IMG/VR virus record: IMGVR_UViG_2693429635_000010 | Origin: a virus | Taxonomy: Duplodnaviria; Heunggongvirae; Uroviricota; Caudoviricetes | Reading direction: 5' to 3' (one strand) | DNA: 16,972 nucleotides | Shown: one piece after another, positions 1,395-11,136 of the stretch | How the letters are laid out: each line of letters starts with the position of its first letter | Numbering within the stretch: the first letter of the stretch is position 1 | Notes under the pieces: model-generated | Database searches by the model: none | Told to the model about the DNA's origin: nothing | What the model saw: the letters and a program-made list of their open reading frames with translations, nothing else | Program-made: the position numbers and the translations under genes

Positions 1395-1471
1395 TGGACC
1401 GCCATCGGGGACTTGAACCCCGCGCAGCCAGCTTCGAAGGCTGGCGCTCTTTCCTGATGAGCTAATGGCGG
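1395..1471 (-). tRNA. tRNA-Arg (anticodon UCG as read from loop CTTCGAA)
   Basis: 77-nt cloverleaf on the minus strand: acceptor CCGCCAT/ATGGCGG (7 bp), D arm GCTC...GAGC, anticodon stem CCAGC/GCTGG, T arm CGGGG-TTCAAGT-CCCCG, discriminator T, encoded CCA. Unusual C1-G72 first pair. Confidence 0.75.
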
Positions 1472-1478
1472 TATGTGA

Positions 1479-1554
1479 TGGTGGCCCTTGCTGGATTTGA
1501 ACCAGCGACCTGGCGATTATGAGTCGCTCGCTCTCACCACTGAGCTAAAGGGCC
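1479..1554 (-). tRNA. tRNA-Ile2 (anticodon CAU, lysidine type; ileZ-like; a plain CAU reading would be tRNA-Met)
   Basis: 76-nt cloverleaf on the minus strand: GGCCCTT acceptor, D arm GCTC-AGTGGTGA-GAGC, anticodon loop CTCATAA, T arm GCTGG-TTCAAAT-CCAGC, AAGGGCC-A-CCA. Closely resembles E. coli ileX/ileY as I recall them. Confidence 0.8.
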
Positions 1555-1603
1555 GGAAGCAGAATAATAATGGTGCGTAATTAATTCTGCAATCTCATCC
1601 GTT

Positions 1604-2533
1604 TCAAACGATTAAATCCTGAACTTCCCTGACTGTCTGCTCAAAACGTCCGGTCTCCAGCTCAACACCAATCGCACGACGCCCCAGTGCCATCGCCGCT
1701 TTTACCGTTGAACCCGACCCCATGAAAAAATCCGCAACCAGATCACCAGGACGACTACTTGCGCTGATTATCTGCTGCAGCATTTCTGCCGGTTTTTCGC
1801 ACGGATGTTTCCCGGGATAGAACTGCACCGGTTTATGTGTCCACACATCCGTGTACGGCACCTGCGCCGTCACACCAAAATACCGCCGCAGATGCTTATA
1901 TTCACTCTGCAGCTCCACATACTGCCGGTTCAGTGACGTATACGTATCCACCAGCTGGTGGTGGGGCTTTTCCAGTTCACCGCGCTGATGTTTCTCTTCT
2001 GCCACCCGGGCAAACAGCGACTGTAATTTCAGATAATCGCTTTCGTTCGGTAGCTGCCACTGACTGGCACTGAACCAGTGCGACACCATGTTTTTCTTTC
2101 CTGTGGCATCTGCAATCTGTTTTGCCGTTATCCCCAGGGCCGCGCGCGCATCACGAAAGTAAGAAATCAGCGGGGCCATCACATGCTGTTTCAGTGCACT
2201 GCCCTTCGCCGCATACCCGGCATCTTTCGGACGATACGGCCCCTGATAATGTTCCGCGAACAGAATGCGCTCTGTGACGGGGAAATACGCCCGCAGGCTT
2301 TCCTTGTTGCATCCGTTCCAGCGTCCGGACGGCTTCGCCCAGATAATATGGTTCAGCACACTGAAGCGTTCACGCATCATGATTTCGATATCAGATGCCA
2401 GGCGATGACCACAGAACAGGTAAAGACTTCCGGCAGGTTTCAGCACCCGCCAGAACTGCGCCAGACACTGGTCCAGCCACTTCAGGTAATCATCGTCGCC
2501 CTTCCACTGGTTATCCCAGCCCTCAGGCTTCAC
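1604..2533 (-). CDS. DNA methyltransferase (beta-class N6-adenine/N4-cytosine type); 5' boundary uncertain, the DPPY motif lies upstream of the first canonical start codon
   Basis: ORF-track protein ends with motif I (HPCEKP...DFFMGSGST). Extending the frame 5' by hand gives stop-LINADCLEFIRSLPENSVDLIVTDPPYFK-V(GTG at 2531-2533), so catalytic motif IV (DPPY) is in frame but has no ATG/GTG/TTG ahead of it. Confidence 0.6.
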   Translation of the reverse strand: MKPEGWDNQWKGDDDYLKWLDQCLAQFWRVLKPAGSLYLFCGHRLASDIEIMMRERFSVLNHIIWAKPSGRWNGCNKESLRAYFPVTERILFAEHYQGPYRPKDAGYAAKGSALKQHVMAPLISYFRDARAALGITAKQIADATGKKNMVSHWFSASQWQLPNESDYLKLQSLFARVAEEKHQRGELEKPHHQLVDTYTSLNRQYVELQSEYKHLRRYFGVTAQVPYTDVWTHKPVQFYPGKHPCEKPAEMLQQIISASSRPGDLVADFFMGSGSTVKAAMALGRRAIGVELETGRFEQTVREVQDLIV

Positions 2534-2790
2534 TTTAAAGTACGGCGGGTCCGTGACTATCAGGTCAACAGAATTTTCGGGTAACGACCGGATAAATTCC
2601 AGGCAGTCGGCGTTGATTAACTAACAACTGGATATTTTTACAGTATTAAGCATGGATCATTAAGCCTGTCTCTGATAGGCTCATTCTGCTTTTGCGCAAA
2701 GCAGTGGGCCTGAGGTTTGCTTGTGAACCCAACGCATGAGCAGATGGCTGGTGGGTGCCCCTAACACCTACCAGCCGCCCATTTACCACA

Positions 2791-2817
2791 AATAAAAAAG
2801 CCTTTACTGCGGAAGGC
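2791..2817 (-). terminator. Putative rho-independent terminator overlapping the stop codon of the small ORF
   Basis: Minus-strand RNA GCCUU-CCGCAGUA-AAGGC (5-bp stem, 8-nt loop containing the UAA stop) followed by UUUUUUAUU. Confidence 0.4.
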
Positions 2818-3001
2818 GTCTGTAACAACCGAACTGATAGTCTGCCAGACCCGCCATAACCAGCTGGGTCAGTATTAACTGGCAGCGTTCGCGTGAAAGG
2901 TAAGTATTCTGCGCAATCTCCCCGACTGTCGCCGGGTCGGTAACGCTTAATTCATTAAACACCACTCTGGCGGTTTCTGTCATATCCTGCTGTTTTAGCA
3001 T
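2804..3001 (-). CDS. Small hypothetical protein (65 aa), possible helix-turn-helix DNA-binding protein
   Basis: Internal ATG of track ORF 2804..3124 with AGGGA ~8 nt upstream: MLKQQDMTETARVVFNELSVTDPATVGEIAQNTYLSRERCQLILTQLVMAGLADYQFGCYRRLPQ. The track's longer N-terminal extension is hydrophobic low-complexity and overlaps the tR'-like terminator. Sits between two terminators. Confidence 0.4.
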   Translation of the reverse strand: MLKQQDMTETARVVFNELSVTDPATVGEIAQNTYLSRERCQLILTQLVMAGLADYQFGCYRRLPQ

Positions 3002-3124
3002 GTCTTTTTCCCTTTTCCGGTTAACGTGACACACCAATAACTCTTGTCGAAAAAGCCAGCAAGCTGAAAGAACGGTATTAATAACCACCAGCGAATTTAT
3101 TGCGCTGCTGTATATTACGGACAC

Positions 3125-3146
3125 AAAAAAACCACCTTCCGGTGGC
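3125..3146 (-). terminator. tR'-like rho-independent terminator ~100 nt downstream of the Q gene
   Basis: Minus-strand RNA G-CCACC-GGAA-GGUGG followed by 7 U (plus-strand A run 3125-3131). Position relative to Q mirrors the lambda pR'/tR' (6S RNA) layout. Confidence 0.55.
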
Positions 3147-3242
3147 TTCCTTGTGCGAAAAAACTTGCATTTCGCCTCGCGATACAGCTTTGCGAAGCTT
3201 ACAGGAATTCAAGCTGTTTCTGCGTAAAAAAGCAAGCTTTTT
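3147..3242 (-). promoter_or_regulatory. Putative late promoter (pR'-like) and Q-utilisation region between the Q stop codon and the tR'-like terminator
   Basis: Positional inference from lambdoid architecture only; several TTG.../TA...T hexamers are present on the minus strand but none could be fixed confidently by eye. Confidence 0.3.
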
Positions 3243-3785
3243 TTATCGAAATGAATCGTGCATAGGTACATAAAGCATGTGTTCAGCCACGGCTAACCAA
3301 CCTGCAATACGTTTCTCACATGTGCTGAAACACCATTCCGGGTGAGTACGATTTAAACATTCTGCCATTTTTCTCTTACTCATTCCCCGTCCTTCGTACC
3401 TTTGCCGGAGAATATTGATTAGCCCGGGATATTCCCCAAGCACCTCACTGATAACGCGATCAATAATCAACGCCTCTGTGTCTGTACAATGTGACAACCA
3501 GCTCTTCTGCTTCCCTCTGGTCATATCCCGAAAAAATGCCTCAAGTTCCGGTTTTTCCAGCCCGGATTTCTTCATGCTGCGTAAAACCTCATTAACTGCT
3601 GTTTTCGTCAGCTTTTTCGAAACCAGTAACCGGTTAAACATATTTCCGGATTTACCCCCACCGATATACGACCACCGCCCCCACATCCGTAATTTCCCCT
3701 GGATCCAGACTGCTTCCAGCGTGTTCAGGCGTAAATGTTCGCCGCTTTTGCCTGTAATTTCCGGATATATCATATTTACGCTCAC
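3243..3785 (-). CDS. Late-gene antitermination protein Q (phage 21/82-type Q family)
   Basis: 180-aa ORF directly downstream of rusA with overlapping stop/start (GTGA), followed by the tR'-like terminator; N-terminal LRMWGRWSY motif resembles the ERWGAW motif I recall from QuuD-type Q proteins. Confidence 0.55.
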   Translation of the reverse strand: MSVNMIYPEITGKSGEHLRLNTLEAVWIQGKLRMWGRWSYIGGGKSGNMFNRLLVSKKLTKTAVNEVLRSMKKSGLEKPELEAFFRDMTRGKQKSWLSHCTDTEALIIDRVISEVLGEYPGLINILRQRYEGRGMSKRKMAECLNRTHPEWCFSTCEKRIAGWLAVAEHMLYVPMHDSFR

Positions 3786-4141
3786 TCACTCTCAATTTTG
3801 TAAATCTTCACACCCAGCCGTCCACCAGATACTGGCTGACCACGTACAATATTGATTTCATCAAACTGCTCGTCATCAATGAGCACTCCCGCATGCGTCA
3901 GCGCATCCAGCGGTGCTTTCAGAATATTGTCCAGGTCACGACGACGCTTATCCGGTGGCTCTGCAATAATTTTTATTGCCAGCCGTCCGGACAGGCTTAA
4001 TTTCAGTCGCTGCTGGCGAACAATAAGCGCCACTGCCCGGCGATAACGCTCCCCGGCTTTTGATACAAAATATGTGCTGCCACGACGTCGCCAGTAAGTG
4101 TTCACTGTCGGCGGGTAAGGTAAAACCAAATCTATGAGCAT
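3782..4141 (-). CDS. rusA: Holliday-junction resolvase RusA
   Basis: 119-aa ORF with strong RBS (AGAGGTG, 5-nt spacer). Motifs LPYPPTVNTYWRRRG and RRRDLDN...DALTHAGVLIDDEQ match the RusA family as I recall the E. coli K-12 sequence. Confidence 0.8.
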   Translation of the reverse strand: MLIDLVLPYPPTVNTYWRRRGSTYFVSKAGERYRRAVALIVRQQRLKLSLSGRLAIKIIAEPPDKRRRDLDNILKAPLDALTHAGVLIDDEQFDEINIVRGQPVSGGRLGVKIYKIESE

Positions 4142-5647: not shown

Positions 5648-5803
5648 TTACTCCTCAGGTTCGTAAGCTGTGAAGACAGCGACCTCCGTCTGGCCGGTTC
5701 GGATTCGTACCTCGCAGAGGTCTTTCCTCGTTACCAGTGCCGTCACTATGACGGTTAAACAGATGACGATCAGGGCGATTAACATCGCCTTTTGCTGCTT
5801 CAT
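5648..5803 (-). CDS. hok: Hok-family type I toxin (51 aa, HokD-like)
   Basis: MKQQKAMLIALIVICLTVIVTALVTRKDLCEVRIRTGQTEVAVFTAYEPEE, embedded in track ORF 5648..5860; matches the Hok/Gef consensus, and I recall HokD (RelF) of E. coli as identical. Confidence 0.85.
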   Translation of the reverse strand: MKQQKAMLIALIVICLTVIVTALVTRKDLCEVRIRTGQTEVAVFTAYEPEE

Positions 5804-5993
5804 AGCCTGCTTCTCCTTGCCTTTCGGCACGTAAGAGGCTAACCTACATTTGTGAGACATAGATTGGGCCTCAGATTAATGTTAAGCGTCTTGCAGGACG
5901 CGTAATGTTAACTGGGGCTTTTCTCTATCTGCCTTTTGGTGTTCATGCCTGAGACAGATAGCCTCAAGCACCCGCAGCAATTCTACTTAACTC
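5804..5993. promoter_or_regulatory. hok mRNA leader (mok / fold-back region) with the expected antisense Sok RNA gene on the plus strand
   Basis: Established hok/sok architecture. An inverted repeat CTATCTG...CAGATAG is visible near 5925-5958. Sok promoter and ends were not mapped. Confidence 0.4.
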
Positions 5994-6269: not shown

Positions 6270-7139
6270 TCATTGGCGCACCTCCTGCGGCGGTTCTGGT
6301 AGCGGCATCCAGTGTGACGGTTTCCACGACGCACCAGGAATTATCCACCCATCATTAGCGTCAGGATGACCCGGGATGTAAGTCGCCCATTTCATTCGCC
6401 AGTCACCTTTCCTGTCAAACTCCACGGCAACAAGAACGGCTGTTTTGGTATCCGGCATTCGCTCACTACAGCTTATCCAACTATCCGGAGTTACCGGATA
6501 GTTGCCCGATAGTGCATTCTGCTCCAGTGATGCTTTTACAAACCACGCTGCCTGAACTATAACGCCATGAATCCAGCGCAAATCAGCATCGCGATCTTTC
6601 TTTTTCATCTTTTCGCCACTTAAGGCCTTGCTTATGTGGCTGCGTACCAGGTCTTCATGTAATTCCTTCGCCTCCTCAATGGTGAAACCACCAGGCAGAA
6701 GAGCCGGAGTTACCGGAGAGCTGGTTGACGCTTCCGGGATTTTCCGAAAATTATTGGTTGACGAATCTTTATTTTCCCGAAAGTTTCCGGACTGAAGCAT
6801 GGCTTCGCGGCAATCGTTCCAGCCTGTAGCGTATGCAGCCGCTTTGCTGCTGCCTTCAACTGGCGCATCCTGCCAATACATTTCTTCCGGCACTATCGGC
6901 GCTGGAGGGGCGGCAAATAGATATCCGCCAAAGTCAGGAAGCTCTCTAATGGCCTGTACGAATTTTTGTTTGCCTACGTCAACCCCTAATGGGTAATGAG
7001 CTATAATCTTTGCCACCGGCTCTGCTTCCAGCGATGCCAGCGCAATCCGTGCCAGTTCCATTTGTTCACCACGGGTAAGCCCGTTTTCAACCGGATTTTT
7101 AATGAACAATTCAATACGTTCTTTGGTAATAGTGGTCAT
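6270..7139 (-). CDS. Hypothetical protein with DUF551-like C-terminal domain
   Basis: 289-aa ORF with RBS AAGGAG (7-nt spacer). C-terminus WISCSERMPD...GDWRMKWATY...WMPLPEPP resembles the DUF551 signature of lambdoid prophage accessory proteins. Confidence 0.5.
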   Translation of the reverse strand: MTTITKERIELFIKNPVENGLTRGEQMELARIALASLEAEPVAKIIAHYPLGVDVGKQKFVQAIRELPDFGGYLFAAPPAPIVPEEMYWQDAPVEGSSKAAAYATGWNDCREAMLQSGNFRENKDSSTNNFRKIPEASTSSPVTPALLPGGFTIEEAKELHEDLVRSHISKALSGEKMKKKDRDADLRWIHGVIVQAAWFVKASLEQNALSGNYPVTPDSWISCSERMPDTKTAVLVAVEFDRKGDWRMKWATYIPGHPDANDGWIIPGASWKPSHWMPLPEPPQEVRQ

Positions 7140-7983: not shown

Positions 7984-8406
7984 TCACAACAGCACCTTCT
8001 GAAAATTACCCTGATAGAAAGCCAGTACACGCTGCATAGCTTCGCTCTTCCGGCACTCGCTACAGATTATGTTCAGACGCCTGTCGTAGCGGCGTATTTC
8101 TCCGTCTGGTAATGACCAGATAAGATCCGGATCAACCACAGATGGTTTCTTCACCTTTGCCCTAGATAGTTTTTTGCGGGCATTTTGCCAGTCCTTACGA
8201 GCCTGTTCAGACGGGAATAACCCGTAACCAGAGTTGTATACATCGCCACTGGCAACCAGCTCTCTGGCGAGAACGCTCATCAGATATCTTGTCGCACCTG
8301 TCCTGGCTTCCAGTTGCCGTAACGTCTCGCGCCCACTCCGGCGTACTAGTTCAACAACCTGCCCTTTAATTTTTTCCCGCTCTTCTTGTGTAAATACTTT
8401 TGCCAT
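7984..8406 (-). CDS. Hypothetical protein (140 aa), paralogue of 15628..16050
   Basis: ATG at 8404-8406 with GGAGG 6 nt upstream (the track's TTG start at 8421 would overlap the RBS): MAKVFTQEEREKIKGQVVELVRRSGRETLRQLEARTGATRYLMSVLARELVASGDVYNSGYGLFPSEQARKDW...; ~90% identical to the right-hand copy. Confidence 0.55.
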   Translation of the reverse strand: MAKVFTQEEREKIKGQVVELVRRSGRETLRQLEARTGATRYLMSVLARELVASGDVYNSGYGLFPSEQARKDWQNARKKLSRAKVKKPSVVDPDLIWSLPDGEIRRYDRRLNIICSECRKSEAMQRVLAFYQGNFQKVLL

Positions 8407-10791: not shown

Positions 10792-10947
10792 TTACTCCTC
10801 AGGTTCGTAAGCTGTGAAGACAGCGACCTCCGTCTGGCCGGTTCGGATTCGTACCTCGCAGAGGTCTTTCCTCGTTACCAGTGCCGTCACTATGACGGTT
10901 AAACAGATGACGATCAGGGCGATTAACATCGCCTTTTGCTGCTTCAT
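10792..10947 (-). CDS. hok: Hok-family type I toxin (51 aa), second copy
   Basis: Encodes the same 51-aa protein as 5648..5803, embedded in track ORF 10792..11004. Confidence 0.85.
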   Translation of the reverse strand: MKQQKAMLIALIVICLTVIVTALVTRKDLCEVRIRTGQTEVAVFTAYEPEE

Positions 10948-11136
10948 AGCCTGCTTCTCCTTGCCTTTCGGCACGTAAGAGGCTAACCTAGATTTGCCGT
11001 TCATAGATTGAGCCTCAGATTAATGTTAAGCGTCTTGCAGGACGCGTAATGTTAACTGGGGCTTTTCTCTATCTGCCGTTGGTGTTCATGCCTGAGACAG
11101 ATAGCCTCAAGCACCCGCAGCCATTCTACTTAACTC
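10948..11136. promoter_or_regulatory. hok mRNA leader / expected antisense Sok region (second copy)
   Basis: Near-identical to 5804..5993. Confidence 0.4.

Follow-up and report, generated by a model that had tools for sequence, protein, structure and literature searches.

C proteins such as C.PvuII and C.AhdI are dimers of the Xre helix-turn-helix type that act at palindromic C-boxes, mainly in the control of endonucleases, and the morons of lambdoid phages are promoter–gene–terminator insertions in late operons. Mu-like phages place the harmful adenine modifier Mom under the control of Com, a small regulator encoded upstream, and FluMu, Pnm1 and Haemophilus influenzae biotype aegyptius have a com-like gene before a non-specific adenine methyltransferase (PMC3299994; PMC6483171). 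Here, we compare with these systems a locus on IMG/VR record IMGVR_UViG_2693429635_000010, a stretch of 16,972 nucleotides (below, the window, meaning the whole stretch that was analysed). The window is a lambdoid Escherichia coli prophage whose cassette genes are read on the minus strand. We found that its 65-codon open reading frame (ORF) at 2804..3001 (−) is a genuine gene for a single-domain winged-helix protein, 63–68 amino acids long in its family, and that this small gene is a conserved upstream partner of a methyltransferase of the M.EcoGII type.

Like com–mom and the FluMu arrangement, the window has a very small gene directly upstream of a late, host-harming enzyme that modifies adenine broadly for restriction evasion. 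As in Mu, the start of the enzyme’s mRNA appears to be hidden in RNA structure, and control appears to be multi-layered. Com, however, is a Cys4 zinc finger, whereas the window protein is a winged helix that has only C40 and C59, no CxxC pairs and no zinc site. The window methyltransferase is of the beta class (DPPY...FxGxG), whereas the com-linked enzymes are Mom or alpha-class, and late transcription is driven by C in Mu but by Q in the lambdoid window phage. Unlike com and mom, the two genes are 150 nucleotides and a hairpin apart, and the small gene and the RNA leader that follows it are each found without the other. We thus draw an analogy with com–mom rather than claim membership. With C proteins the locus shares a small protein of the helix-turn-helix kind that heads a DNA-modification cassette and is thought to time expression through a conserved site before its own gene; in contrast to them, it has a winged helix, a non-palindromic site (motif A, below), and Q, methyltransferase and tRNA genes for neighbours, with no endonuclease. 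With lambdoid morons it shares a short, hairpin-bracketed gene in the region from Q to lysis, found behind different Q modules, but unlike them it has no recognisable promoter and is tied to one particular downstream gene. The small gene itself is already catalogued as a hypothetical protein. The same family is listed as PHROG 331, function unknown, and in RefSeq as WP_000917749.1. The M.EcoGII literature that we searched, which mostly excluded subscription journals, mentions no upstream gene, leader or LexA box. As far as we could find, the three cis elements described below are undescribed.

The reading frame consists of 65 codons and a TAA stop, at the coordinates that had been assigned to it in the original prediction, and is preceded by a ribosome-binding site, AAGGG at 3010–3014, for which relatives carry AAGG or AGG at the same place. 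A length of 65 codons means nothing by itself; what places the ORF beyond chance are its 333 database homologs, its match to PHROG 331 (E 2.8e-37) and its invariant residues written in synonymous codons. The protein is identical to RefSeq WP_000917749.1, which is annotated on exactly these 198 nucleotides, and identical copies occur on at least 1000 contigs; 2535 of 5426 complete E. coli genomes carry the surrounding cassette DNA. The family is narrow, with 61 representatives after 50% clustering, many of which are frameshifted copies. We examined 35 genomic loci from Kluyvera, Salmonella, Klebsiella, Citrobacter, Enterobacter, Erwinia, Proteus, Providencia and Plesiomonas. Essentially all of them keep the ATG start (MLKQQDM), the length stays between 63 and 67 amino acids, and even in Proteus, Providencia and Plesiomonas, where identity falls to about 42%, frame, start and length are preserved. 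Conservation of the frame in relatives had been named in advance as a check on which the proposal of a gene could fall, and across these Enterobacterales loci the frame is kept. The invariant residues C40, L44, T45, Q46, A50 and G51 are each written with two to six synonymous codons among 105 distinct coding sequences, which indicates constraint on the protein. Only the first nine codons and the last eight, the latter overlapping a hairpin, show little synonymous variation. A 106-residue version starting from GTG at 3124, given by a mechanical ORF list, was rejected because many relatives have stop codons 2–5 codons 5′ of the ATG. Residues 1–64 align with positions 35–98 of the 111 in the PHROG 331 profile, and the extra N-terminal positions of the profile correspond to over-long start calls of the same kind.

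An AlphaFold2 model built from a 24-sequence alignment is a minimal winged helix with a predicted local distance difference test score (pLDDT) of 92.9. It consists of helices H1 (9–16), H2 (26–33) and H3 (37–49) and a beta-hairpin wing at 53–62 (strands 53–56 and 59–62). This is the winged helix-turn-helix topology, H1-(b1)-H2-H3-b2-wing-b3, and the template modelling (TM) scores to winged-helix domains are 0.7–0.8. The segment that had been proposed by eye as a helix-turn-helix is H2–H3 of this model, so that the structure prediction bore the proposal out. Foldseek searches of PDB and BFVD returned generic winged-helix neighbours only (E >= 1e-3): OhrR/MarR, IclR, TrmB-type and O-methyltransferase winged helices, the N-domain of T4 MotA, the RNA-binding winged helix of SelB, and Z-DNA-binding and ArsR-type phage proteins. 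A sequence search of PDB with the small protein found no relative, and in Pfam, NCBIfam and PADLOC searches no curated model reached its threshold, the winged-helix matches all being sub-threshold. The RefSeq name, ‘TrmB family transcriptional regulator’, is thus a fold-level guess that the family thresholds do not support. The TrmB model PF01978 scores 17.3 bits against a gathering cut-off of 25.6 (E 0.0044), and no NCBIfam model matches. The TrmB family has an N-terminal winged helix-turn-helix, a dimerisation coiled coil and a C-terminal effector domain, and true TrmB proteins are about 340 residues long with a sugar-binding domain; in the small protein, 65 residues of winged helix only, the coiled coil and the effector domain are absent. 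MarR_2 reaches 14.3 bits against a cut-off of 27, the model lacks flanking dimerisation helices, and the Foldseek overlap with OhrR/MarR covers the winged-helix core only. There was no Pfam match to the Xre-type HTH_3 either. We also considered RgdR, a group of 99-residue prophage regulators from P4-like islands with a functional RGD near residue 20 (PMC3378721), and rejected it on the basis of its description: the small protein has 65 residues, lacks an RGD motif and lies in a lambdoid late region.

The linkage of the small gene to the methyltransferase was counted from three independent seeds: the small protein, a DNA pattern at the methyltransferase start, and the methyltransferase protein. 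Starting from the small protein, a full-length orthologous methyltransferase of about 350 residues lies downstream in 29 of 35 genome loci; two of the other loci have a shortened methyltransferase, two end before the gene, and the ORF lists of the remaining two, L023 and the diverged L016, contain none. Starting from the DNA pattern, 97 of 108 viral contigs carry the small ORF under a strict test, with three further variants, and the distance from its stop to the methyltransferase ATG is 150 ± 1 nucleotides in 92 of the 97. The methyltransferase protein led to more divergent phages, in which the small ORF is present at 63 of 78 loci. Overall, the pairing amounts to 81–93% in about 220 related loci across Enterobacterales. 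The label ‘accessory cargo’, under which the gene had been filed, is therefore misleading, since the gene is a conserved partner of one particular enzyme. The methyltransferase leader and a LexA-type box accompany the methyltransferase even without the small ORF in 12–13 loci; conversely, the small ORF is present without the LexA box and the full leader in 33 of the loci reached from the methyltransferase protein, some of which simply read terminator, Shine–Dalgarno sequence, methyltransferase. Two viral contigs, L057 and L129, have an unrelated ORF of at least 120 residues (starting MDIVNLLEVLKP...) in place of the small gene, with the leader and methyltransferase kept, in what looks like a module swap at this slot.

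The minus strand carries, in order of reading, hokD/sok, a DUF968 gene, rusA, a Q-like antiterminator, a strong terminator, the small ORF, the methyltransferase, three transfer RNAs (tRNAs) and an STnc100-type small RNA (sRNA). The features of the cassette from Q to the methyltransferase are as follows:

3243..3785 (−): Q-like late antiterminator gene (DUF1133 / Phage_antitermQ), upstream neighbour of the small ORF; from Pfam and PHROG
3121..3156 (−): tR′-like intrinsic terminator, core hairpin and T7 at 3125–3146; from its fold and its presence in relatives
3026..3063 (−): motif A, a bipartite non-coding element, candidate operator or RNA element of the small gene; from alignments
3010..3014 (−): Shine–Dalgarno sequence AAGGG of the small ORF, 8 nucleotides 5′ of the ATG; from reading the sequence
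2804..3001 (−): gene for the 65-residue winged-helix protein (PHROG 331; RefSeq WP_000917749.1); from homology, AlphaFold2 and codon-level purifying selection
2791..2817 (−): hairpin with the stop codon, then a T-run, a weak or leaky terminator; from the terminator rule and its fold
2654..2795 (−): putative structured 5′ leader of the methyltransferase mRNA, stem-loop I and a multi-stem domain; from RNAalifold and covariation
2627..2645 (−): LexA-box-like palindrome TACTGTAAAAATATCCAGT at methyltransferase codons 3–9; from a pattern match and conserved arms
1604..2653 (−): M.EcoGII ortholog, a 349-residue beta-class DPPY N6-adenine methyltransferase with TAG at codon 11; from alignment and Pfam N6_N4_Mtase

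The product of 3243..3785 matches Pfam DUF1133 (E 1e-110), Phage_antitermQ (E 1.4e-8) and PHROG 753, ‘anti-termination protein Q-like’. Downstream of the methyltransferase, ARAGORN reads the tRNA cluster at 1305–1554 (−) as Met(CAT), Arg(TCG) and Arg(TCT), the CAT tRNA being tRNA-Ile in RefSeq; clusters of the same kind lie upstream of stx in Shiga-toxin phages, and an identical E. coli record has no stx genes after the cluster but a DUF6645 gene instead. The STnc100 sRNA (Rfam match at 1038–1228 (−), 138 bits, E 7e-31) lies directly 3′ of the tRNAs in the late operon. The window also contains two loci of the hok/sok type, at 5648–5973 and 10942–11116 (−), with sok antitoxin RNA scores of 120 and 107 bits, the first of which adjoins an annotated hokD-like ORF (5648–5860).

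The small gene had been placed in the slot directly behind Q and its terminator, and this position holds well beyond the window: a terminator lies within 260 nucleotides upstream of the small ORF in 157 of 174 unique loci, and of 27 genes found upstream, 19 code for Q proteins from three unrelated Pfam families (PF03589, PF06323 and PF06530/DUF1133). The upstream terminator, GCCACC-GGAA-GGTGG followed by T7 at 3125–3146 (extended, 3121–3156), folds at −23.9 kcal/mol with z = −6.6, a value that none of 200 shuffles equalled. The downstream hairpin, GCCTT-CCGCAGTA-AAGGC followed by T6AT3 at 2791–2817, holds the stop codon within its loop. It satisfies the terminator rule but is weak in the window, with a stem of 5 base pairs, a loop of 8 nucleotides and a fold z of −0.39. 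Most E. coli copies have a TGA stop and a stem of 6 base pairs, and the window copy has one pair fewer owing to its TAA stop. Other lineages retain a hairpin with different complementary arms (judged by eye and uncounted), its U-tract ranges from excellent to absent, and the terminator rule is satisfied in only 85 of the 174 unique loci, with no such hairpin in Morganellaceae-type copies. Thus, of the two terminators that had been said to flank the gene, the upstream one stands firmly, while the downstream one is weak and variable.

Between the upstream terminator and the small gene lies motif A, CTTGCTG-N12-AGAGTTA-N3-GT-N-TG(TCAC), at 3026–3063 (−). It is the best-conserved non-coding feature of the locus, with fixed spacing among 111 distinct variants, and is more conserved than most of the adjoining coding sequence. 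The motif occurs in a single copy per locus, ends 22–35 nucleotides before the ATG, and is present where the small ORF is present and absent where it is absent. An insert of about 45 nucleotides at 3066–3110 (−), between tR′ and motif A (ACAGCGCAATAAATTCGCTGGTGG..., with a small CAGCG/CGCTG hairpin), is found in E. coli-, Kluyvera- and Citrobacter-type loci and is lacking in others, which gives two discrete distances from terminator to ATG, about 90 and about 120 nucleotides.

We tested several identities for motif A. As a sigma-70 promoter it failed in every register, owing to a G or C at −7 or a missing A at −11. By eye it did not fit sigma-54, sigma-32, sigma-E, sigma-28 or CII-type promoters, nor LexA, CRP, DnaA, IHF or Pho boxes. 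It was rejected as the terminal repeat of a mobile unit, being single in each locus, and as an upstream leader peptide, which is unconserved. Pairing of its CUUGCUG with codons 4–6 showed no covariation, and a hairpin between the variable N12 and the Shine–Dalgarno region gave a marginal signal (−7.17 against −6.54 kcal/mol; 58 of 94). In two lineages the N12 is complementary to the Shine–Dalgarno region of the small ORF. A consensus promoter scan of 1400–3900 found no promoter-like site, and a position weight matrix scan of 30 loci found no conserved forward sigma-70 site between terminator and ATG. The absence of a detectable sigma-70 promoter from tR′ to the ATG favours Q-dependent read-through as the route of expression. 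Of the two routes that had been offered, read-through after antitermination is thus the better supported; a promoter of the gene’s own has indirect support in motif A, which fails the −10 consensus.

The enzyme encoded downstream, at 1604–2653, is a beta-class methyltransferase of 349 residues (DPPY...FxGxG; Pfam N6_N4_Mtase) that is identical to M.EcoGII at 330 of 350 positions (94%; M.EcoGII sequence from the supplement of PMC11551740). M.EcoGII methylates adenine in any sequence context, is unexpressed in lysogens, and when expressed constitutively makes cells grow slowly and unstably (PMC5778455). Methylomes of O111 lysogens of Shiga-toxin-producing E. coli likewise show no non-specific methylation despite two homologs (PMC6602927). 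Given this harm to the cell, the enzyme must stay silent in the lysogen. Codon 11 of the window copy is TAG (2621–2623) instead of the GAG (Glu11) found in M.EcoGII and in other E. coli copies, so that the window methyltransferase is probably inactive; the RefSeq coding sequence starts at a non-canonical ATC (2617) and thus bypasses the stop.

The roughly 150 nucleotides between the two genes form a leader of fixed length (2654–2795), for which RNAalifold gives a model of 41 pairs. In this model 92% of cells are paired, compared with 29–42% in slid controls, and 15 pairs are changed on both sides compared with 7.9 in shuffles, none of 500 shuffles reaching the observed value; the structure derives from the same alignment as its test, and the sequences form few clades. 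In the closing helix, GGUCAC+AAGCG is paired with CGCUU+ACUGAUC, immediately 5′ of the methyltransferase AUG (−4 to −15), and other lineages carry alternative complementary versions (GGA/UCC, GAG/CUC, GGGC/GCCC). The methyltransferase has no Shine–Dalgarno sequence in leader-bearing lineages. Judging by G–U pairs, the sense strand is favoured (92.0 vs 84.6% paired), which speaks against an origin of the structure on the antisense strand. Rfam contains no family that matches the leader at gathering thresholds or at E <= 10. Comparative folding thus supports sequestration of the methyltransferase start, and the leader is a candidate new cis-regulatory RNA family.

The third cis element lies just inside the methyltransferase gene. 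The LexA box of gammaproteobacteria is CTGT-N8-ACAG with an AT-rich centre (consensus TACTGTATATATATACAGTA), and alternation of ACAG and CCAG is known from LexA boxes such as those of uvrB and recN. The palindrome at 2627–2645, TACTGTAAAAATATCCAGT, is the single match in the window against 0.00 expected and has the sequence of a putative box; relatives have TACTGTAAAAATAAACAGT. In 30 diverse loci its arms are invariant, its centre is AT-rich and variable, and its synonymous sites are fixed. Such a box would act as a roadblock or as part of a promoter, tying a gene of the late operon to the SOS response. An antisense LexA-controlled promoter was rejected, as its −10 is unconserved (Asn codon 3 varies between AAT and AAC). 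Some cassette phages carry a short LexA-family or ‘SOS-response repressor’ gene in the nin region upstream of rusA, for example L039 (phage 1720a-02) at 6788–7114 and L003 at 8179–8376, and its product is possibly relevant to this box.

Judging from conservation, co-occurrence and predicted structure, on which all functional statements here rest, the small winged-helix protein is probably a dedicated regulator of the methyltransferase. We infer that it binds nucleic acid, and the same holds for its target and the sign of its regulation. More specifically, we tentatively favour, a little short of calling it probable, a Q-dependent, cassette-specific controller that acts through motif A on itself and on the methyltransferase. 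Polymerase passing tR′ would reach the small gene first, so that its expression would be mainly Q-dependent, with perhaps some protein also made from the few pR′ transcripts that leak through tR′ in lysogens. The protein would recognise motif A, either as DNA or as RNA, within the leader of its own gene, and this recognition would set the flow of transcription or translation into the small gene and the methyltransferase. Together with the hairpin or terminator after the ORF, the start-hiding RNA leader and the LexA-type box, the small protein would form a multi-layer lock that keeps the methyltransferase off in lysogens and on late in lytic growth. It is possible, although we consider it doubtful, that the small protein is the missing specific regulator of M.EcoGII and that, with motif A, the leader and the LexA box, it constitutes an independently evolved lambdoid counterpart of com–mom.

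Several observations weigh against a controller that works through motif A. The net charge of the small protein is about −1.5 in the window and −2.5 to −5 in several lineages, its isoelectric point (pI) is acidic to neutral in most lineages (4.7–6.5) and basic in one subfamily (9.6), and the wing is unconserved; judged by sequence, the acidic charge and the unconserved wing are unusual for a minimal DNA-binding winged helix. Conservation is among the highest in the flexible N-terminal tail, MLKxxDMTE, which is also odd for a DNA-binding domain of such size. Where the original prediction spoke of a small regulator, the fold is borne out, and the regulatory role is a deduction. Motif A has no dyad, direct-repeat symmetry or recognisable consensus, and it stays constant while the N-terminal half of helix 3 varies (RERCQ, NENCE, YESCE, EPFCD), which argues against base-reading by those residues. 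Methyltransferase loci that lack the small ORF number about 7 of 108 and 15 of 78, so that the small protein is not indispensable for expression of the enzyme; conversely, the small ORF stands without the methyltransferase in phage PhiR5_1 and at locus L023, and neither gene strictly depends on the other. Adjacency in a mosaic phage genome can, moreover, be inherited without functional coupling, and we found no experiment on the small protein in the literature.

The best-surviving alternative, which we consider unlikely but credible, is that of an independent moron. Motif A would then be a non-canonical or activator-dependent promoter and the stop-codon hairpin a terminator, and the small protein, produced in the lysogen, would serve lysogenic conversion by regulating host genes or other prophage genes, with no relation to the methyltransferase. 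Motif A is indeed laid out like a promoter, with two fixed blocks at a fixed spacing and an end 22–35 nucleotides before the ATG, but none of its registers offers a usable −10 hexamer. Bracketing terminators would be pointless for a gene read only by a terminator-resistant polymerase; the downstream hairpin, however, satisfies the terminator rule in just half of the loci, and the Morganellaceae-type copies lack it. Homology in phage matches starts about 30–45 nucleotides 5′ of motif A, and PhiR5_1 and L023 carry the unit without the methyltransferase, whereas a pairing of 81–93% with one downstream gene would be unexpected for a free moron.

We regard as rather improbable a second alternative, in which the small protein binds the M.EcoGII-type enzyme itself, as an antitoxin-like or chaperone-like partner that holds back or redirects the enzyme until lytic growth is at a late stage. 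In a variant of this explanation, the small protein may also regulate itself through motif A, by analogy with type II antitoxins. The gene order, a small upstream gene and then a harmful enzyme, speaks for it, and the pairing outlasts the loss of the RNA leader and LexA box; yet the genes are 150 nucleotides and a terminator-like hairpin apart, with no translational coupling. The acidic pI of most lineages and the highly conserved flexible tail would suit a protein–protein contact, but one subfamily is basic (pI 9.6). In addition, 7–19% of methyltransferase loci have no small ORF, and recombinant M.EcoGII is active alone (PMC5778455).

A translational activator similar to Com, with the winged helix binding the leader RNA and opening the start-hiding helix as Mu Com does for mom, appears more doubtful still. 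The leader helix covers −4 to −15 of the methyltransferase AUG where no Shine–Dalgarno sequence exists, winged-helix domains can bind RNA hairpins (that of SelB is among the structural neighbours), and com–mom and com–methyltransferase pairs set a precedent. This explanation is difficult to reconcile, however, with the 12–13 loci that have the leader without the ORF, with the 33 that have the ORF without the full leader, some of them with an ordinary Shine–Dalgarno sequence, or with the acidity of most homologs. Finally, a non-functional frame, conserved through overlapping nucleic-acid signals or recent spread, would accord with the very high nucleotide identity among E. coli copies and the low synonymous variation in the first nine and last eight codons, but is close to refuted by a frame, start and length held to about 42% identity, by invariant residues in many synonymous codons and by a confidently predicted fold.

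M.EcoGII is a widely used tool enzyme, in chromatin footprinting, MadID and RNA methylation, and a very large number of E. coli strains have relatives of it in their prophages, Shiga-toxin phages among them, with the cassette DNA present in about half of complete E. coli genomes. The partner gene and the three cis elements offer a handle on how phages time a dangerous anti-restriction enzyme. The LexA box would link a gene of the late operon directly to the SOS response, and the cassette would be a second, independently evolved case of the com–mom logic. If the proposed lock is true, it would explain why a widespread non-specific adenine methyltransferase never appears in the methylomes of lysogens.

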